64,000 bases of DNA from a virus. The translations under genes were made by a program, and so were the position numbers. Each line of letters begins with the position of its first letter. Position 1 is the first letter of the stretch. The stretch is taken from the IMG/VR virus record IMGVR_UViG_3300021185_003351, positions 32,001 to 96,000 of that record. One strand, written 5' to 3'. This document shows positions 18,866 to 54,125 of this stretch, piece after piece. The notes under the pieces were generated by a model, which searched no databases, was not told the origin of the DNA, and saw only the letters and a list, made by a program, of their open reading frames with translations.

Positions 18866-18907
18866 TATATTTTCATTTTTTTTATTTCGTCTATATTTAT
18901 AGTAAAT

Positions 18908-18971
18908 ACACTATCTCTATATAGTGTCAATTATTATTAATTTATTCTATTAAGATTTACAAATAATCTTA
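18908..18971 (+). promoter_or_regulatory. Twin-hairpin 5' leader of the scaffold/capsid operon
   Basis: ACACTAT/ATAGTGT (18908-27) and TAAGATT/AATCTTA (18951-71) lie between TATTTATA (18894) and AAGGAG (18990). Confidence 0.5.
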
Positions 18972-19002
18972 TTTCCAAAAACAAAATTTAAGGAGACAAG
19001 TA

Positions 19003-20047: not shown

Positions 20048-21691
20048 ATGAAAATTTCATCTTTACTAGAAGACAATAATCCTTCCCAAAGAAATGCAGC
20101 GTTAAAAACTGTAACAAAATGGGAAAAGACAGGTCTTCTAGAAGGTTTAAAAACCGAAACAGAAAAAGCAGGTATGGCTCAGCTTCTTGAAAATCAAGCT
20201 AGACAACTTGTAAAAGAAGCATCATCAACTGGTACTACTGAAGGATCAGAAGAATGGGCTGGTGTAGCTTTACCATTGGTAAGAAGAATCTTTGCTGAAT
20301 TTGCAGCAAAAGAATTTGTTTCTGTACAACCAATGAATTTACCATCTGGACTAGTATTTTATTTAGATTTCAAATATGGAACTGAAAAAGCTGGATTTGA
20401 TGGTGATAATTTAAATGTAGCTGGCGATCCTTTTGGATCACCAAATGCTGACGATTCCATGTTTGGTGTAACAACTACTGCAGGAGATCCAACTGGTGGT
20501 CTTTATGGTGCTGGTAGATTTGGTTACTCACTCAATGATGTAGCAGTTACTGCTTCAGCTGTTGTTTCAGCAGCATCATCTGCATCTGTAAATTACGATT
20601 CATCATTTACTGGCAATAAATTATCTGAATATAACGTAGTAACTGTACCGTTAACATCGTTATCAGGTTCAGATTCAACTGCAGTTAGATCATTTATTAT
20701 CGAAACTGGATCTGGTACAATTGTGCAACATTCTGCATTTACAAAATTAAATGCTGCAAAAACTCATGTTGAGTTTTTAGTATCTGGATCAGCTGCATCA
20801 ATGACTGGTGTTGAATACATTGTTAAATTTAGTGAGCAACCAACTGACATCTCTAGAGGCGACTTTGAAGATTCAAATCCTTTTAAAGGTTCTGGTGCTG
20901 GTACTGGTATCAATAATGGTACTGATATTGACATTCCTGAAGTTAACTTAGAAATGCAATCAGATCCAATCGTAGCTAAGACTAGAAAGTTAAAAGCTGT
21001 TTGGACTCCTGAATTTGCACAAGATTTAAATGCATATCATTCAATTGACGCTGAAGCTGAATTAACTTCAATGTTAAGTGAATATGTATCAATGGAAATT
21101 GATCTTGAAATTCTAGATATGTTAATCAATGGTGCATTAACAACTGAATATTGGTCAGCTCAATCTAATCAATTCTTGAACGCAGCTGGTACAGCTTTTG
21201 AAGGAAGAGATGTTTCTGCAGGCGGATATTATAATACACAAGGAGAGTGGTTCCAAACTTTAGGAACTAAACTTCAAAAAGTATCTAACAAAATTCATCA
21301 AAAAACACTTAGAGGTGGTGCTAATTTCTTAGTTACTTCACCTGCTGTTGCAACTATCCTAGAATCTATTCCTGGATTTGCTGCTGACACAGATGGTAAC
21401 AAAATGGAATTTGCTGCTGGTGTTCAAAAAATTGGTGCAATCAATAATAGATACACAGTATATAAGAATCCATATATGAAAGAGAACGTAATCCTTATGG
21501 GTTATAGAGGAGCACAATTCCTTGAAACTGGTGCAGTATATGCTCCATACGTACCTTTAATTATGACTCCACTAGTATACGATCCTGTTAATTTCACCCC
21601 AAGAAAAGGTGTAATGACAAGATATGCTAAGAAAATGGTAAGACCAGAATTCTACGGTAAAGTATATGTTGCTGGATTAGACACTATTTAA
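20048..21691 (+). CDS. Major capsid protein (T4 gp23-like)
   Basis: PLVRR, VSVQPMNLPSGLVF, AKTRKLKAVWTPEFAQDL, YAPYVPL and FTPRKGVMTRY motifs. Confidence 0.97.
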   Translation: MKISSLLEDNNPSQRNAALKTVTKWEKTGLLEGLKTETEKAGMAQLLENQARQLVKEASSTGTTEGSEEWAGVALPLVRRIFAEFAAKEFVSVQPMNLPSGLVFYLDFKYGTEKAGFDGDNLNVAGDPFGSPNADDSMFGVTTTAGDPTGGLYGAGRFGYSLNDVAVTASAVVSAASSASVNYDSSFTGNKLSEYNVVTVPLTSLSGSDSTAVRSFIIETGSGTIVQHSAFTKLNAAKTHVEFLVSGSAASMTGVEYIVKFSEQPTDISRGDFEDSNPFKGSGAGTGINNGTDIDIPEVNLEMQSDPIVAKTRKLKAVWTPEFAQDLNAYHSIDAEAELTSMLSEYVSMEIDLEILDMLINGALTTEYWSAQSNQFLNAAGTAFEGRDVSAGGYYNTQGEWFQTLGTKLQKVSNKIHQKTLRGGANFLVTSPAVATILESIPGFAADTDGNKMEFAAGVQKIGAINNRYTVYKNPYMKENVILMGYRGAQFLETGAVYAPYVPLIMTPLVYDPVNFTPRKGVMTRYAKKMVRPEFYGKVYVAGLDTI

Positions 21692-28839: not shown

Positions 28840-30606
28840 ATGGCATCATGGAAAAAAGTCATCGTATCAGGCAGTAATGCCGATTTAGCACAAATAACAT
28901 CATCAGCTGGAATAATAACTGCAGGAGATTTAAATGTTTCTGGTAATAGTTTTCTAGGAACTAATCCTAGCGGTAGAACAGAAAGCACTGGATCATTATT
29001 TATTTCTGGAGCACTTGTATTAGATACAAATACAGGAGGCGGATCCAATGTTGGAGGGTTTACATTTGATTTAGGACCAACATCTGATGCTAGAGATGGT
29101 AGAATAATAGTTACTCCAAAACATAGATATGGCGGATTTCAATATAAAGTTTTATCTGATGCCAATTATAGTAACGAAACAGTAATTGATCTTTACTCCG
29201 CCAACGCAGGAAGAACAGGATTTCTTGCACTTTATAATCAAAACACTAAAAATATACAATTATCTGCAGATGCTCAAGGAGCTATGTTTAATACTGCAAT
29301 GGTAATTGGAACAAATCAAGCTGCAAATGCATTTATTCAAAGTAATGATCCAAATGCACCAGACAATACTAATCCTTATAAATTAGCAGTAGCTGGTAGA
29401 TTATATGTTGGTACTGCTAATGGAGAACAAGCAATTCATAATATAACAGGATCTACAAATATAACAGGATCATTAAATGTTGATGGTACATTAACAGTTA
29501 CCGGAGATACATTACAAGAAGATTTACAAACAACAGGAACTACCAAGCTTGGTAATGATATGTCTGACAAGACAGAAGTTACAGGATCTTTAAATGTTAC
29601 TGGATCTAGTTTCTTTCAAGGAAGTGGTATTTTTAGTGGGTCAGAGGCAAAAGTAACAATTGATCCATATGCTACTAATGTAATTGAAATACAAGATGCT
29701 GGCGGCGGAACAACACAAAAATTAAGATTTAGAAATGCTGTAGGCTCTGAGGAAATAGTACTTCATGGTAATGATACTGATAATAGAATATTCTTGAACG
29801 GCGGAGGCAGTACTGATGTCATGCTTAGGACAGCCAATAGCTATTTTGGAGGCAAGTTGAGTATAGGTGCCGCCTCTTACGATAACGATAATACATTATC
29901 TGTAACAGGTAATGCAAAAGTAACAACAGGTATTACTGGATCTTATTTAACTGATAATAAATTATTAACTGCCGGAAGTGTAGGACAAATTGAATCAAGT
30001 GCAATAACTTGGGATGATACCACATTAACAGTAGGATCATCAGGAGCAGGACATGTTTATGCAACTCAAGTAACTGCATCAGAAGTTAAGATATCTAGTT
30101 TAGCAGCTGACAGAATTGTATTTGTTAATTCAACTAATCAATTAGAAGATTCCGCAAATTTACAGTATGATGATGATGGCGGATTAAATGTAGGCGGAAA
30201 ATTATCTTTAACCGGTGATTTAATTGTTTCTCATAACTTAACAGTTCAAGGAACAGCATCGTTTCAAAACACAGAAGACTTAGACGTTAAAGACAGATTT
30301 ATAAGAATGGCGTCGGGTTCTACCACAACTGGAGATGGTGGATTTGCAGTACAGCAAACAGGTCCATTAGACACAGAAGGATTTGGATATGATAGTGCTT
30401 TACAAAGATGGGGAGTTACTTCATCGTTTGATGCATCACAAAATGCATTAAATCCAGCAGCATTTATGCCAATGACAATTAATGGAACAGAAAATGTACC
30501 AACCTCTAATCAAGTAGCAAATGAAACTAGATACAAAAAAGCTGGTAACATGTATATTGATACAAATGCTTCCATGGAAGAAGGCGGCGTTTGGATATAC
30601 GTATAA
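28840..30606 (+). CDS. Fibre-like virion protein
   Basis: MASWKKVIVSGS N-terminus shared with the 30977 gene, beta-repeat body, AAGGAG RBS. Confidence 0.65.
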   Translation: MASWKKVIVSGSNADLAQITSSAGIITAGDLNVSGNSFLGTNPSGRTESTGSLFISGALVLDTNTGGGSNVGGFTFDLGPTSDARDGRIIVTPKHRYGGFQYKVLSDANYSNETVIDLYSANAGRTGFLALYNQNTKNIQLSADAQGAMFNTAMVIGTNQAANAFIQSNDPNAPDNTNPYKLAVAGRLYVGTANGEQAIHNITGSTNITGSLNVDGTLTVTGDTLQEDLQTTGTTKLGNDMSDKTEVTGSLNVTGSSFFQGSGIFSGSEAKVTIDPYATNVIEIQDAGGGTTQKLRFRNAVGSEEIVLHGNDTDNRIFLNGGGSTDVMLRTANSYFGGKLSIGAASYDNDNTLSVTGNAKVTTGITGSYLTDNKLLTAGSVGQIESSAITWDDTTLTVGSSGAGHVYATQVTASEVKISSLAADRIVFVNSTNQLEDSANLQYDDDGGLNVGGKLSLTGDLIVSHNLTVQGTASFQNTEDLDVKDRFIRMASGSTTTGDGGFAVQQTGPLDTEGFGYDSALQRWGVTSSFDASQNALNPAAFMPMTINGTENVPTSNQVANETRYKKAGNMYIDTNASMEEGGVWIYV

Positions 30607-30609
30607 TAA

Positions 30610-30852
30610 ATGTTAAAACAGTTACAAAAATTTATGGGATTTACAGCAAAAAATATTGATGTAAAAAATCAAGAAAAAATTAAAATTAAAAAAGCCAAAG
30701 TGCCAGAACCAACACAACCTATATCTCAATTAACTAACACAGAAATAGTATGGTTAATGGGGTTAATTAAATCTGGTACTTTTAAAGGTGAAGATGTTCA
30801 AACTGTATATGAAACAGTTGTTAAGTTACAAATCATGTTAAATCAATCATAG
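30610..30852 (+). CDS. Small hypothetical protein (possible fibre chaperone)
   Basis: 80-aa ORF directly after a fibre gene. The true start may be the second Met. Confidence 0.5.
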   Translation: MLKQLQKFMGFTAKNIDVKNQEKIKIKKAKVPEPTQPISQLTNTEIVWLMGLIKSGTFKGEDVQTVYETVVKLQIMLNQS

Positions 30853-30898
30853 TTTGTATTTGATCTTAGAAAATAAATTATTATAATATTTATATTAA

Positions 30899-30960
30899 AT
30901 TGTTGTAGGCCGAAAGGAAGTAGGCATATACACGGCATAGTGTATGTATCTAACCACAAT
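30899..30960 (+). ncRNA. Candidate structured RNA (three-way junction) in a 5' leader
   Basis: Closing stem ATTGT/ACAAT, a CC-GAAA-GG GNRA hairpin, and a 13-position hairpin (30921-33 with 30940-52). GC-rich relative to its surroundings. Confidence 0.6.
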
Positions 30961-30976
30961 AAATTAAAGGACATAT

Positions 30977-33442
30977 ATGCCAAATTGGAAAAAGGTCGTT
31001 GTATCTGGAAGTGCGGCCAATCTACATTCTTTAAACGTATCAACTGATGTCACTGCATCAAATATAAGTTCTAGCGGCAATATATTCGGAAATTTATCTG
31101 AAAACTCATCCACATCATTTAAAACAGTTGTAGTAGATCCATCTACGGGTCAATTTTATAGAACAGGTTCATATGGCACCGGCGGTGGAGGCGGAGGAGG
31201 AAGTGCATTCCCATTTACTGGAGATGCTCAAATAACAGGATCATTAATAGTATCAGGAGCATTACAATTAGATTATAATGGTAATGACAATATAATTATA
31301 GGTTCTGGTTCTGGAGAAGTATTAGACTCTGGAACAAATAATATTATATTTGGTAATAATGCAGCAACTAGTTTAACTACAGGAGGTAGCAATTTAATAA
31401 TAGGTCATAGAGCTGGAAAAAGTACAGCATTAAATCAAGAAAGTGGAAATACTCTTATAGGTATAGGTGCAGGTGAAGATGGAACTTATGATGCAAATTA
31501 TGGATCTAATACATTTATAGGATATAATGCTGGTAAAAGTTCTGCAGCAATGTATAGCACATTTGTGGGATCTGGAGTAGGACAAGGAACTACTAGTTTT
31601 AGTGTTGCCATGGGAGCAAATGGAACTTTATCCTGTACAGCTGCCCAATCTGTTGCATTAGGATATGGTAGTCAAACAAATGGTACCAATAATTACAATG
31701 TATCTCTAGGTACATCAGCTATGCGATCAGGTAATGGTGGATCTCTAAACCAATATAATGTTGCATTAGGATATCAAGCTCAATACACAAGTTATAGACT
31801 TAACAATTCTATTTCAATTGGTGCTAAAGCAGCCTATGGAACAAGTTATGCAAAAGATGATATTTTTATAGGACATGAAGCAGTTTATAGTTATGTAGGA
31901 AATACTACAGGTCGTAATCTTATCATCGGATACCAAGCGGGATATGATTTAGGAGATGCAAGTACACATAATATTTTAATTGGAGAGGGAGTAGGAGCAG
32001 AAAATGTAGTTCTAGAAAAACAATTAAAAATAGGATCTGGATCTTTAATAACAATATCAGCTTCACTAGCAACAGGTGACATAATATTCCCAAGCACGGC
32101 ATCAGCAGACTATTTTGTAGGTGATGGATCTCAATTAACAAATTTACCAGCAGCATCTGCAGGATCAACAGCAGGTAGAGTAGTATTCACAACTACCAAT
32201 GGAGAATTAACTTCTGAAACTGGATTTACATATGATGCAACTACTGACAGATTAACAGTACCTAATTTAACTACCACAACATTTACCGCATCATTTATAA
32301 CATCATCTACAATTGAAACCTCAGGTTCAAATATATTTGGAGATGAAGCTGGAGTAGATATTCAAACATTAATAGGTACTACTAAGATGACCGGTAGTGC
32401 TCAAATTACGGGTAATACACAAATAACAGGATCATTATTAGTAGCAGGAGCTAATTCTGGTATTGCTCCTACCACTTCATCTCTTAAAATAGATAGTAAT
32501 GGATATTTTTATCATTTAGGTAGATACGTTGGAAATGCAACAAATTTTGCAAATAACCAATCTAATACTGTTATAGGTAATAATATAACTAGTGATGGAG
32601 ATTATTACAATACCATAATAGGAGAATCAGCAGGAGTAGGTAGTACAACTAATCAAACCGCAATAGGTAGAGGAGCTATAGCAAATGTTGCAAGTAGTAC
32701 TGCTATTGGGTCTACATCTAAAGCTTACGGTGTTAAAAGTACAAGTATAGGAATGGGTGCTGGTAGTACAACATCAAAGGGTTTAAATATAGGCTACTAT
32801 GCAAGAGGAACTGGAGCAAAAAATATTGTTTTAAATGCTTCTGAAGGAACTGTTGGACCTACTAAAGCAAATACCTTTGGTATTTACATGACTGGTACTA
32901 GTCCTAACTTTGAAATTGAAGCAACAGGTTCATCAACACTATCCGGATCATCTTTCACAATAGAAAAATCAGGTTCAACAGTATTCGAAGTAATAGGATC
33001 AGAAGGTACATTATTTTCAGTAGACGATGATTTAGATGGAACTATATTTACAGCAAACGATAGAACAGGTCTTCCAGTACTAGAAGCATCAGCTTCAGGA
33101 GAAGTTTACATAGGAAAGAATCCACAATCTTTATATACTACAGCTGTTATAAGCTCCACTACCGCAGATGTAACACAATCATTGTATGGATTGGATACAA
33201 GTTCTTATGGAGGAGCCTTCTTTGATTATATAGCACATTCTGGGTCTAATGCACGGGGTGGAACAGTCTCATCTGTATGGACTCCTGGTGGATCTGTTGT
33301 GTTCTCAGAAACAACTACAACTCATATTGGAGACACATCCAATTTAAATTTAGTAGTACACTTTTCTCAAAGTCAAGCACAATTAGCTTGTTATGCAGAT
33401 ACATCTCAATACAATATTAAAGTTATAACACGAGCAATATAA
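30977..33442 (+). CDS. Fibre protein with trimeric autotransporter-head-like (YadA-type) repeats
   Basis: Repeats of about 14-16 aa (NxxIGxxAG, SxAIG, NVALGYQA) and an MPNWKKVVVSGS N-terminus. Confidence 0.7.
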   Translation: MPNWKKVVVSGSAANLHSLNVSTDVTASNISSSGNIFGNLSENSSTSFKTVVVDPSTGQFYRTGSYGTGGGGGGGSAFPFTGDAQITGSLIVSGALQLDYNGNDNIIIGSGSGEVLDSGTNNIIFGNNAATSLTTGGSNLIIGHRAGKSTALNQESGNTLIGIGAGEDGTYDANYGSNTFIGYNAGKSSAAMYSTFVGSGVGQGTTSFSVAMGANGTLSCTAAQSVALGYGSQTNGTNNYNVSLGTSAMRSGNGGSLNQYNVALGYQAQYTSYRLNNSISIGAKAAYGTSYAKDDIFIGHEAVYSYVGNTTGRNLIIGYQAGYDLGDASTHNILIGEGVGAENVVLEKQLKIGSGSLITISASLATGDIIFPSTASADYFVGDGSQLTNLPAASAGSTAGRVVFTTTNGELTSETGFTYDATTDRLTVPNLTTTTFTASFITSSTIETSGSNIFGDEAGVDIQTLIGTTKMTGSAQITGNTQITGSLLVAGANSGIAPTTSSLKIDSNGYFYHLGRYVGNATNFANNQSNTVIGNNITSDGDYYNTIIGESAGVGSTTNQTAIGRGAIANVASSTAIGSTSKAYGVKSTSIGMGAGSTTSKGLNIGYYARGTGAKNIVLNASEGTVGPTKANTFGIYMTGTSPNFEIEATGSSTLSGSSFTIEKSGSTVFEVIGSEGTLFSVDDDLDGTIFTANDRTGLPVLEASASGEVYIGKNPQSLYTTAVISSTTADVTQSLYGLDTSSYGGAFFDYIAHSGSNARGGTVSSVWTPGGSVVFSETTTTHIGDTSNLNLVVHFSQSQAQLACYADTSQYNIKVITRAI

Positions 33443-34161
33443 TGGGAACAAGTTACTCTCCAAATATAGTAGAAGATGGATTAATATTTCAAGTAGATGC
33501 TGCAAATCAAAGATCATATCCTGGGAGTGGCACTACTGCTACTGATTTAAAAGGTCCGGCAGAAGGAACTTTATCCGCTGGAGCTAGTTTTAATTCTATA
33601 AACTTAGGAGCATTTCAATTCGATGGAATAGACGATCAATTGAATTTTGGGAATGCCGTATCAACTAATATTGCTAATGGTGAAGATTTAACTATAGATG
33701 CATGGATACGATATACTAGTGATACTGGCGGAGAATCTCAATATCCTATGATTTTTACTAGAAGAAGATCAGTTCAAAATCAATCATCTCTAACTAATTA
33801 TTATCTTTATTTACTCGACTCAACAACTTCCGGTGAGAGATCAATTAGATTCTTCACATCTTATACAGATGGAAATATTACTAGTGATCAAACTGTAAAA
33901 ATTAATACTTGGACTCATATATCAGTAACTTGTCAATCTGGACTTAATAATGGAACCTTTATGTATAAAGATACAGAACAAGTAGCTAATTTTAGAGCTG
34001 ATACTGCGGGAGCATCTAATTGTACTACAATAATAGGCGATTCTCCATATTCAAGTAACAATTTTCCAGGTCAAATAGCTAATGTAAAATTATATAATCG
34101 TGCTCTTTCGACTCAAGAAGTTAAACAAAATTACAATGCAATGAAAGCGAGGTTTAGATAA
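33442..34161 (+). CDS. LamG/concanavalin A-like lectin domain protein 1
   Basis: GLIFQVDAAN..SYPG, FDGIDD, TIDAWI, WTHI and LYNRALS..EV.QNYNA motifs. Confidence 0.85.
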   Translation: MGTSYSPNIVEDGLIFQVDAANQRSYPGSGTTATDLKGPAEGTLSAGASFNSINLGAFQFDGIDDQLNFGNAVSTNIANGEDLTIDAWIRYTSDTGGESQYPMIFTRRRSVQNQSSLTNYYLYLLDSTTSGERSIRFFTSYTDGNITSDQTVKINTWTHISVTCQSGLNNGTFMYKDTEQVANFRADTAGASNCTTIIGDSPYSSNNFPGQIANVKLYNRALSTQEVKQNYNAMKARFR

Positions 34162-34901
34162 TGGGTATAAGAAGAGGTTCTATATCAACTCCAATCATAT
34201 CGGATGGGCTAGTATTCAATATGGATGCTGCAAATAGGGCAAGTACTATGCCTAATACCGATACTACAACAACATTTAATACTGTAGATACTTCTATATT
34301 TGGTTCTATAATAACAGATGGTACTTGGGAAGCTGGACCACCGTTGGCTTTCGATTTTGATGGTAGCGATGGACATATACAGTTTGGTGTTCTTTCTTTT
34401 ATACGAAATGTTTCTGAATTTACTATTTCATTATGGGTTCAAATAAGTAATTTAACTAGTAATTATAGATTTTTTGGAAGTAGACAATCTAGTTCTCCAT
34501 ATGATGGTCTAGGTAGTGAAACTGGTAGCGGTGGTATGGCCGGAAAATTATTTTTTTATTCAATGGGTAATAATCAAGCATTTCCGGCAGTTGGTATAAC
34601 CATGGCTAATGAGGGAATAACTGCAAATAACTGGTTTTTATTTACATGTAGATATGGAAATTCTACACAAGAAATATTTGTAAATGGAAATCCCACAACA
34701 GTAACTCAAGGAAGCACAACAACTAATGTAGCAAGTACCACCGATAATAATTCTACAAATTTTTTGATAGGCGGAGATTCGATAAATTCAGCCGGAAAAT
34801 TAAATGGTAAAATAGGAAATTTTCAAATTTACAACCGTGCCTTATCAGCAACAGAAATCCTACACAACTACAATGCTTTAAAAGGAAGATTTGGGTTATG
34901 A
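34161..34901 (+). CDS. LamG-like lectin domain protein 2
   Basis: GLVFNMDAAN, FDFDG, FTISLWV and IYNRALS motifs. Confidence 0.85.
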   Translation: MGIRRGSISTPIISDGLVFNMDAANRASTMPNTDTTTTFNTVDTSIFGSIITDGTWEAGPPLAFDFDGSDGHIQFGVLSFIRNVSEFTISLWVQISNLTSNYRFFGSRQSSSPYDGLGSETGSGGMAGKLFFYSMGNNQAFPAVGITMANEGITANNWFLFTCRYGNSTQEIFVNGNPTTVTQGSTTTNVASTTDNNSTNFLIGGDSINSAGKLNGKIGNFQIYNRALSATEILHNYNALKGRFGL

Positions 34902-35626
34902 AAATAGGTAGCATAACAACAGGTATTATAGCGGATGGGCTAGTATTCAATATGGATGCGGCAAATAGAGCAAGTTATCCTAAAACTGGTACTACTGTTA
35001 CTGATACTATAGATTATGATATAAATACTAATAACACAGGGACATTTAGTAATAATAACAGTAGTACATTCTTTAGTACAGATAAGGGTGGAATATTTCT
35101 TTTTGATGGAATAGATGATTATATAACAGTTAATGGAAGTACTAATTCTGGACTAAATAGACCAGGAATAACAAACCAAATAACATTAGAAGCCTGGTGT
35201 TATACTAGAACTTTTAATAATAATTATGAAAGAATAATAGCACGAAGAATAGTAAATACTCCTTTACCTTATATGTTTGGATTTCATACTGTGTCAGGTA
35301 ATAAATATGATCTTTATTTAAGTGGTAACAGTAGTTATGGGCCTGCATCTTTAAACTCTACTACTAACGTAATATTAAATGAGTGGGTACATTTTGTAGG
35401 TACTTCTGATAATTCTACAAGAAAAATATATTTAAATGGAGTATTAGATAACTCAGATTCATATTCATCTGGGATATTTTCTACAGATATAAATCTTCAA
35501 ATAGGAGCCCAATTAAGCGGTTACAATTATAATGGAGATATAGGTGCTGTTAGAATATATGATCGCGCCTTATCAGCAAACGAAGTTTTACGCAACTACA
35601 ATGCTTTAAAAGGAAGATTCGAATAA
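34898..35626 (+). CDS. LamG-like lectin domain protein 3
   Basis: FDGIDDY, ITLEAW, WVHFVGT, IYLNG and IYDRALS motifs. Confidence 0.87.
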   Translation: MKIGSITTGIIADGLVFNMDAANRASYPKTGTTVTDTIDYDINTNNTGTFSNNNSSTFFSTDKGGIFLFDGIDDYITVNGSTNSGLNRPGITNQITLEAWCYTRTFNNNYERIIARRIVNTPLPYMFGFHTVSGNKYDLYLSGNSSYGPASLNSTTNVILNEWVHFVGTSDNSTRKIYLNGVLDNSDSYSSGIFSTDINLQIGAQLSGYNYNGDIGAVRIYDRALSANEVLRNYNALKGRFE

Positions 35627-36351
35627 TGGGATTAGCACACGGAACAAATATAGTAAAAGATGGATTAGTATTTTATATGGACGCTATGAATTTAAGAACA
35701 TGGTCTGGTCCTCCTTCATATTCAGTAAATTCATTAGTAGGAAGTGTAACGGGATCTATTTTTAATGATACCTCTGGCAGTTTTGGAAATAGAAATAGTT
35801 TTGATTTTGATGGAACTGATGATCGTATAACAACGAATATAACTGGAAATGCTCTATTAGGAAGTAACAACCCATATACTTTTTCAGCTTGGATTAAACC
35901 ATCAAACCCTGGAAGTTCATCAACCCAAGCAATTTTTGGAGGATATAGCCATTGGTCAAACTTTCATTTTTTTGGATTTTTTGTTAAAAATGGTTATGCT
36001 GGCTATTATTATTCTGGTGGCGGTGGTTTATGGGGTCCAAAGTGGGATACAGCAGCAGATACTCCTGTAACAGAAAATGTTTGGCAAAATATTACTTATA
36101 CTTGGACTGGTACTACTGACCAAACAAGAAAAATTTATATAAATAATGTTTTAAAAAAAACTCAAACTGAATCTGGTGGAGGTGGTATAGTAAGTGCGGT
36201 TTTAATGAATGTAGGATCTTTTAGATATATGTCCCAAAATAATTCACATTTTCAAGGTGATATAGGACCAATACAATTATTTAATAGAGCATTATCAACT
36301 CAAGAACTTATCCAAAACTACAACGCATTAAAAGGTAGATTTAGTTTATAA
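35626..36351 (+). CDS. LamG-like lectin domain protein 4
   Basis: FDFDGTDD, YTFSAWIKP, WQNITYT and FNRALS motifs. Confidence 0.85.
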   Translation: MGLAHGTNIVKDGLVFYMDAMNLRTWSGPPSYSVNSLVGSVTGSIFNDTSGSFGNRNSFDFDGTDDRITTNITGNALLGSNNPYTFSAWIKPSNPGSSSTQAIFGGYSHWSNFHFFGFFVKNGYAGYYYSGGGGLWGPKWDTAADTPVTENVWQNITYTWTGTTDQTRKIYINNVLKKTQTESGGGGIVSAVLMNVGSFRYMSQNNSHFQGDIGPIQLFNRALSTQELIQNYNALKGRFSL

Positions 36352-54015: not shown

Positions 54016-54031
54016 AATAAATTATAAAAAT

Positions 54032-54057
54032 AATGGGAGTTTAGGCTCCCATTTTTA
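54032..54057 (+). terminator. Rho-independent terminator after the tube gene
   Basis: AATGGGAGT-TTAG-GCTCCCATT stem followed by a T-run. An A-run upstream makes it possibly bidirectional. Confidence 0.85.
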
Positions 54058-54125
54058 CGATCTAAAAATATTTATTATAAATAAGTCATTCCAATCATAT
54101 TGTTACATTTAAACCTAGGTAACAT

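Follow-up and report, generated by a model that had tools for sequence, protein, structure and literature searches.

The window, i.e., the whole 64,000-nucleotide stretch of DNA analysed here, comprises bases 32001-96000 of a 172,973-bp IMG/VR virus record rated complete by CheckV. It has a G+C content of ~31%, its long open reading frames all lie on the plus strand, and it contains a structural module of the phage with a major head protein (20048-21691) and fibre-like proteins. Intergenic gaps in the window are short and very AT-rich. The gap at 30853-30976, at 124 nt the second longest, has the most stable predicted fold among them (-19.2 kcal/mol) and lies between the gene for a small protein and that for a fibre-like protein, as follows:

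30610-30852, plus strand: gene for a small protein of 80 aa, the conserved upstream partner of the RNA-fibre module
30860-30887, plus strand: sigma-70-like promoter match TTGATC-16-TATAAT, a consensus match at 10 of 12 positions
30887-30894, plus strand: TATTTATA, a recurrent promoter-like motif before genes
30898-30965, plus strand: structured RNA element
30967-30971, plus strand: AAGGA, a Shine-Dalgarno-like box read from the sequence, 5 nt before AUG
30977-33442, plus strand: fibre-like gene of 821 aa, whose product starts MPNWKKVVVSGS, with PHROG matches to virion structural protein and tail spike
33442-36351, plus strand: four translationally coupled LamG (Laminin_G_3) genes (Pfam E 1e-16 to 1e-26) with TAATG/ATGA overlaps
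1796, 7699, 9985, 13794, 25311, 28799, 36355, 47543, 50104, 53478, 54699 and 55704, plus strand: intergenic examples of TATTTATA

The longest gap of the window (18866-19002, 137 nt), located before the scaffold/capsid genes, folds at -15.6 kcal/mol into two hairpins followed by a strong AAGGAG box. The sole clear terminator-like hairpin seen in the gaps lies at 54016-54125; it has a perfect, GC-containing stem of 9 bp with UUUUU behind it, and a second promoter-like motif comes next. ARAGORN detects no cloverleaf, i.e., no tRNA or tmRNA gene, in the window.

RNAfold predicts that 30898-30965, read on the plus strand, adopts a three-way junction with a minimum free energy (MFE) of -17.7 kcal/mol and a z-score of -3.36, and none of 200 shuffled sequences folds equally well. 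The junction is retained when the complete leader is folded together with the start region. The element has a G+C content of 40%, versus 9% and 19% in its flanks, and consists of the following parts:

30900-30906, plus strand: 5' strand of P1, UUGUUGU, pairing with 30956-30962 in the MFE fold, the covariance-model alignment and the P1 covariation
30907, plus strand: bulged A between P1 and the two closing G-C pairs
30908-30909, plus strand: GG, pairing with CC at 30954-30955
30910-30917, plus strand: P2 hairpin, CC-GAAA-GG
30918-30920, plus strand: junction strand J2/3, AAG
30921-30952, plus strand: P3, in which 30921-30923 pair with 30950-30952, followed by an internal loop and a long distal helix
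30924 and 30947-30949, plus strand: P3 internal loop, with G30924 opposite U30947, A30948 and U30949
30934-30939, plus strand: P3 apical loop, GGCAUA, complementary to UAUGCC of the start region (30976-30981)
30953, plus strand: junction strand J3/1, a single A that is invariant in the family
30954-30962, plus strand: CC and the 3' strand of P1, ACAAUAA, supported by the MFE fold, covariation and the covariance-model alignment

An earlier note on this DNA had described a GC-rich island, and the contrast with the flanks bears this out. The CC-GAAA-GG hairpin (30910-30917) and the AAG (30918-30920) that it cited are present at those positions, as are the AAGGA ribosome-binding site at 30967, the two stacked promoter-like motifs (TTGATC-16-TATAAT at 30860-30887 and TATTTATA at 30887-30894) and the four coupled LamG genes downstream. 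Its outer stem, ATTGT (30899-30903) with ACAAT (30956-30960), names bases that are in place, but the register is 3 nt off from that of P1 (30900-30906 with 30956-30962), and its junction left unpaired the two G-C pairs (30908-30909 with 30954-30955) that comparative data pair. When 30921-30933 is set against 30940-30952, 12 of 13 positions do pair, two of them as G-U, yet this register holds only for the distal helix, in which a C-G pair becomes U-A in two related loci (L124 and L004); in the family, the P3 base has a C30925-G30946 pair, with U30947 and A30948 left single-stranded. The view that the element is not a terminator stands: no terminator-like site is called there, and what comes next is AAAUUAAAGG, with no U-tract.

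The element is one copy of a widespread RNA family, found in many aquatic phages, that has no entry in Rfam 15, and at least ~150 distinct copies were collected from IMG/VR phage contigs. The exact core 21-mer occurs in 26 contigs that represent at least six lineages with diverged flanks, among which a core of ~50 nt, including the whole P3 helix, is identical and the outer stem differs by compensating changes. In loci fetched via the encoded protein alone, every MPNWKK leader carries a diverged version of the motif, and a scan with a degenerate pattern that took no account of the downstream gene yielded at least 135 distinct real elements. The consensus reads, in its 5' part, P1, one bulged base, GG, P2 (CC...GG, 8 to ~26 nt), AAGU and R-G-R-C and, in its 3' part, a variable P3, G-UA-D-C-Y-A, A, CC and P1', with ~20 invariant junction bases and hairpins of varying length. 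The family model, R1, matches 30898-30965 over its full length with 59.4 bits (E 9e-19), and the window copy has P1, a one-base bulge, GG/CC, a CC...GG P2, AAGU, a P3 whose internal loop contains UA, and a J3/1 that consists of one A. Each complete genome searched contains one clear copy; in the window's genome, the sole other R1 match is marginal (12.6 bits, E 0.6).

The covariation analysis used the 130 distinct sequences among the matches listed. Standard pairs occupy 91.4% of their cells, versus 28-44% with slid partners, and the covariation score is 0.416, versus at most 0.12 in the slid controls, with none of 500 shuffles reaching the observed values; without guidance, RNAalifold predicts the same junction and P3 helix. 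Part of the core invariance was imposed by the search pattern itself, but the GGCC block and P1 lay outside it, and the GG corresponding to 30908-30909 is nonetheless invariant among the matches listed. The bulge is occupied in every one of the 130 listed members (U in 91, A in 31, C in 7 and G in 1). Pair 45-80, at which the pattern permitted four combinations, is G-C in 93 and A-U in 37 of the 130 listed sequences and is never mismatched. A scan for an ...AAUC variant returned 16 true members, and all 16 carry GA for GG on the 5' side, changing the inner pair (14-83) from G-C to A-U, a change also present in the cultured phage described below; a scan for an ...AACU variant returned no true members. 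In P2, the two closing C-G pairs are conserved and the third covaries among the listed members (CG 60, UA 33, UG 8). J2/3 is AAG in all 130 listed sequences as well as in the leaders collected by protein alone, and the core is unchanged among members with wholly different hairpins. G-U cells (123) far outnumber A-C cells (19), indicating that the folded molecule is the plus-strand RNA. An alternative fold that pairs the junction UGG with the second CCA is not conserved, because 37 of the listed members, the window's class included, have an A at position 45, which would stand opposite a C. The earlier note had named a lack of conservation or covariation in orthologous leaders as what would overturn its reading; that comparison gave the opposite result, both being strong.

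Its suggestion to run Infernal against Rfam was also followed. The note could assign the fold to no known family, and this is borne out: at gathering thresholds, none of the 4,227 models of Rfam 15 matches the window or any of 18 related loci. When E is relaxed to 10, the matches are chance ones to snoRNA, lncRNA and sRNA models, none of which overlaps the window element or comes near a gathering score. A GGAAGUAGG core suggested a glutamine riboswitch. The glutamine-I (glnA) riboswitch is known from marine bacteria and phages (PMC6698751, PMC9004378), and, like the present element, is a three-way junction of ~60 nt found in marine phage genomes; however, its signature helix CGUUC...GGAACG, visible in the sequences of PMC6698751, is absent here, and RF01739 and RF01704 both fail to match even with E as high as 10, so this candidate was rejected. 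The hammerhead ribozyme, common in phage intergenic DNA, is likewise a compact three-way junction with an invariant core, but its CUGANGA/GAAA strands are absent, the junction strands here being AAG and A only, and its covariance models do not match. Fremin and Bhatt (2023; PMC10690425) reported 8,495 candidate structured RNAs, all without names, from intergenic regions of IMG/VR, i.e., from the same data source, with structures within 25 nt upstream of phage genes; the text of that paper, the basis of this comparison, makes no mention of tail genes, and the present element may be one of its numbered entries.

The family reaches one cultured phage, vB_FspM_immuto_2-6A of Flavobacterium sp. LMO8 from the Baltic Sea, which was found by a permissive-E tblastn with the first 40 residues of the fibre protein. 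Its copy (NC_055915.1, 137889-137949) scores 57.2 bits with R1 and lies directly upstream of the gene for gp052, which is annotated as a "putative tail fiber-like protein" and begins with MPSWKKVILSGS. BLAST searches of cultured phages with DNA queries from three subfamilies and with the 141-aa N-terminus (E 1e-3) gave no match. As this phage features in a paper on 7-deazaguanine modifications of DNA, 7-deazaguanine (preQ) sensing was considered and rejected, the window's genome having neither QueC nor TGT/DpdA. In bacterial genome records, pattern matches are nearly all chance or coding sequence; two are real copies, one of them on a contig binned with a Candidatus Pelagibacter metagenome-assembled genome. 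Given their quite different translation signals, the phages that carry the identical core probably infect different host phyla. Look-alikes in Streptomyces were discarded, as their R1 scores reach only 15-19 bits and their folds do not surpass those of shuffled sequences. Streptomyces and its relatives (loci L186, L199, L250, L268, L270 and L273) share a conserved sequence of ~32 nt, GGAAGTAGGCAC...GTGCGTAAC[CT]AACC, which in L186, the sole such locus inspected, lies between genes for an HxlR-type regulator and an aldo-keto reductase; it probably serves as a DNA operator and has no connection with the phage RNA.

The RNA is tied to a single gene. Among the matches listed, all 135 real copies precede a gene starting MP(N/S/A)WKK, and in 130 of the 135 the start codon lies 12-33 nt downstream; the other five carry an insertion or start with GTG. 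The window copy shows the same placement, its AACC ending at 30955 ahead of an AUG at 30977. One HNH insert, one GIY-YIG insert, three insertions of ~100 nt and a GTG start account for the apparent exceptions. The HNH open reading frame (L072) lies between the RNA and the fibre gene and takes over the first three codons (MPN), MPSWRK... resuming downstream, and the GIY-YIG open reading frame (L133) is inserted precisely between the two; these natural variants show that tight adjacency is not strictly required. The extra ~100 nt before the MPNWKK start in L081, L156 and L173 are conserved between L081 and L156. The first 12 residues of the fibre are almost as invariant as the RNA. Paralogous MA(S/N/T/E)WKK fibre genes lack the element, in related loci too, and the window gene at 28840-30606 (MASWKKVIVSGS) is among them. 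This fibre-like gene, with an N-terminus near-identical to that of the gene at 30977, has a plain leader consisting of TATTTATA and AAGGAG.

A homologue of the small protein is encoded immediately upstream in 124 of 131 elements among the matches listed. An AF2 model predicts a disordered N-terminal half and a C-terminal hairpin of helices 43-55 and 60-79 (pLDDT ~95). The family has Lys-rich disordered tails, a mean column identity of 17% and no invariant residue, and its profile is too diverse for a locus search. The protein matches no Pfam or PHROG family, and a fold search returned generic helical hairpins only, none with an E-value better than 3. Its counterpart in phage immuto is gp053. 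The protein could serve the fibre as a chaperone or an adaptor, or it could be the partner of the RNA.

The motif TATTTATA is the reverse complement of the T4 late-promoter word TATAAATA. In the window, 17 of its 22 plus-strand copies fall within ~1.1 kb of intergenic DNA, a few bases before genes, and most gaps contain one. It is found in phage immuto too. Across the RNA family, the distance from the end of the promoter-like motif to the bulge downstream is 10-41 nt and in most cases 11-18 nt, a spacing which suggests that (late) transcripts would start at about the first base of P1; the motif is missing in ~40 of the 130 listed members, in which ~60 nt upstream was scanned. A Shine-Dalgarno box is present in 46 and absent in 84 of the 130 listed members. 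The distance from AACC to AUG is 12-33 nt, and 12-25 nt in all but two of the listed members, which places the end of the P1 3' strand 8-15 nt upstream of the AUG. P1 is weak (median -4.5 kcal/mol), and its 3' strand overlaps the Shine-Dalgarno box in 27 listed members, mostly of the AAGGAG class, in which P1 covers the box and is abutted by the stop codon of the upstream gene; in class A, the upstream stop abuts P1.

Two subfamilies lengthen different arms, P3 in the window's class and P2 in the AAGGAG class, and both bear a conserved GGCA(U) loop that is complementary over 5-7 nt to the invariant AUGCC at the start of the gene. In 47 of 123 listed members, the complementarity to the start is in the top 2% of positions of the member's own gene, whereas the plain tetraloops of half of the family have no complementarity to the start. 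The loop-start duplex, GGCAUA (30934-30939) with UAUGCC (30976-30981) in the window, is predicted at about -11 kcal/mol. The third base of the Pro codon could pair with the loop base 5' of GGCA in all four members with a U-loop, and the codon is CCG in seven of ~35 with a C-loop, a suggestive trend that is too weak to count as covariation.

Taken together, the distances, the weak P1, the overlap with the box and the complementarity between loop and start codon point to control of translation initiation. The reading we prefer, an even call in our judgement, is that the element acts in cis on translation initiation of the MPNWKK fibre, most plausibly through a partner common to all hosts. The stretch 30898-30965 would be transcribed from the plus strand as the 5' leader of the fibre mRNA, and this leader would control initiation at the fibre gene and, through coupling, at the four LamG genes that follow. 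A binding pocket would be built from the invariant junction, to which the closing GG/CC pairs, the foot of P2, AAGU, the internal loop of P3 and the lone A contribute. Occupancy of this pocket would stabilize the weak P1 within the ribosome footprint, the end of P1 being 8-15 nt from the AUG; in the window's subfamily, the same fold may offer the P3 loop GGCAUA to UAUGCC and thereby cover the start codon. A small molecule, an ion or the ribosome itself is favoured as the partner over a phage protein, since the core is identical despite differing translation signals and the neighbouring protein is only 17% identical across its family. More speculatively, a new riboswitch class could have its aptamer in this junction, or a new class of small self-cleaving ribozyme its core, and we regard either as possible but doubtful.

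Several observations sit uneasily with the preferred reading. A ligand, an expression platform and an alternative fold are all hypothetical, and the transcript start is taken from the promoter-like motif only. Riboswitches normally control metabolic or transport genes, unlike a virion fibre. Half of the family has plain tetraloops that are not complementary to the start, P1 is clear of any Shine-Dalgarno box in most of the listed members, and in two natural variants the RNA is separated from the fibre gene by a homing-endonuclease gene. The closest functional analogues appear to be the translational operators of T4 and orphan single-gene riboswitch candidates such as the yjdF motif. The T4 operators, i.e., the gene 32 pseudoknot, the gene 43 hairpin and the RegA sites (PMC3014915), are also structured or specific RNAs in phage mRNA leaders by the ribosome-binding site that set downstream translation; however, they bear no sequence or structural likeness to the element and serve replication genes read by known phage proteins, whereas the RNA described here forms a three-way junction ahead of a late fibre gene and is conserved well past one phage genus. 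The yjdF motif (PMC4793209) likewise combines an invariant core at the junction with hairpins that vary and a P1 that covaries, and is associated almost exclusively with a single gene family, but it has another fold and is bacterial, and the virion structural gene here gives no metabolic clue to a ligand.

Among the competing explanations, the strongest, though still unlikely, is an autogenous or other phage-protein operator, in which a protein would bind the junction and repress fibre translation when unassembled protein accumulates, in the manner of T4 gp32 and gp43 or the RNA-phage coat proteins. Such a protein could be the small helical-hairpin protein encoded upstream, with its Lys-rich disordered tails, or the conserved N-terminal domain of the fibre, with 12 residues nearly as invariant as the RNA, and the co-occurrence of the RNA with both genes (135 of 135 and 124 of 131 among the matches listed) as well as the T4 precedent (PMC3014915) argues for it. 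However, a protein family with 17% identity and no invariant residue is poorly suited to reading ~20 invariant bases, its generic helical hairpin has no significant structural match, and the MA(S/N)WKK paralogues have nearly the same N-terminus yet lack the RNA. It is improbable that the element is a self-cleaving ribozyme or another processing site that cuts the late polycistronic mRNA before the fibre cistron. Catalysis would need just such a compact three-way junction with an invariant, host-independent core, the location is intergenic like that of many hammerhead and twister copies in phages, and both the ~40 of 130 listed members that have no promoter-like motif in the ~60 nt scanned and the upstream stop abutting P1 in class A speak for it; but none of the Rfam ribozyme models matches, even with E as high as 10, the CUGANGA and GAAA strands of the hammerhead core are missing, the junction has only four unpaired bases, and so strict a distance to one start codon would be unusual for a ribozyme.

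Just as improbable is a passive structure that binds no ligand and either shields the mRNA from 5'-end-dependent decay or enforces coupling to the small upstream gene. In its favour are the promoter-like motif, from which transcripts would begin around the first base of P1, and the AAGGAG class, with its upstream stop abutting P1 and P1 covering the box; yet either role needs a helix, not ~20 invariant junction bases with a conserved bulge and internal loop, and P1 is weak. The ~50 nt that are identical in at least six lineages with diverged flanks, together with HNH and GIY-YIG endonuclease genes inserted exactly there, could mean that the element is mainly a DNA boundary for recombinational exchange of fibre modules, with the RNA fold secondary. 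This is very improbable, as compensatory changes occur in all helices, the excess of G-U over A-C is strand-specific, and the core is invariant where the hairpins differ completely. A small standalone RNA, which the earlier note had offered as an alternative and which the compact, stable fold would suit, deserves next to no credence, because a terminator is lacking and the coding region begins straight afterwards, at most 33 nt away in 130 of the 135 matches listed and usually 12-25 nt. The other suggestion of that note, a leader controlling the fibre gene at 30977, has gained support from the position of the element just upstream of the MPxWKK start, 12-33 nt away in those same 130 of the 135 matches listed.

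Collectively, the element is a real, conserved, structured RNA leader and defines a new family of a known general kind, whose function is probably the translational control of one fibre paralogue, as judged from sequence comparison. Tail fibres determine which hosts are open to attack by a phage, and, to our knowledge, almost nothing is known of how their synthesis is controlled post-transcriptionally. The conservation of the core is on a par with that of a validated riboswitch or ribozyme, and the RNA is tied to a single fibre paralogue and spans phages that apparently infect different phyla. Because a cultured pair, vB_FspM_immuto on Flavobacterium sp. LMO8, carries the RNA, these ideas are directly testable. 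If the element cleaves itself, it would represent a new ribozyme class; if it senses a ligand, phages would tune their host-recognition apparatus to the state of the cell. Should the junction belong to a new riboswitch or ribozyme class, one tail fibre and its lectin partners would be gated on a signal common to all hosts, and the element would be the first known RNA sensor to control a virion host-recognition protein.
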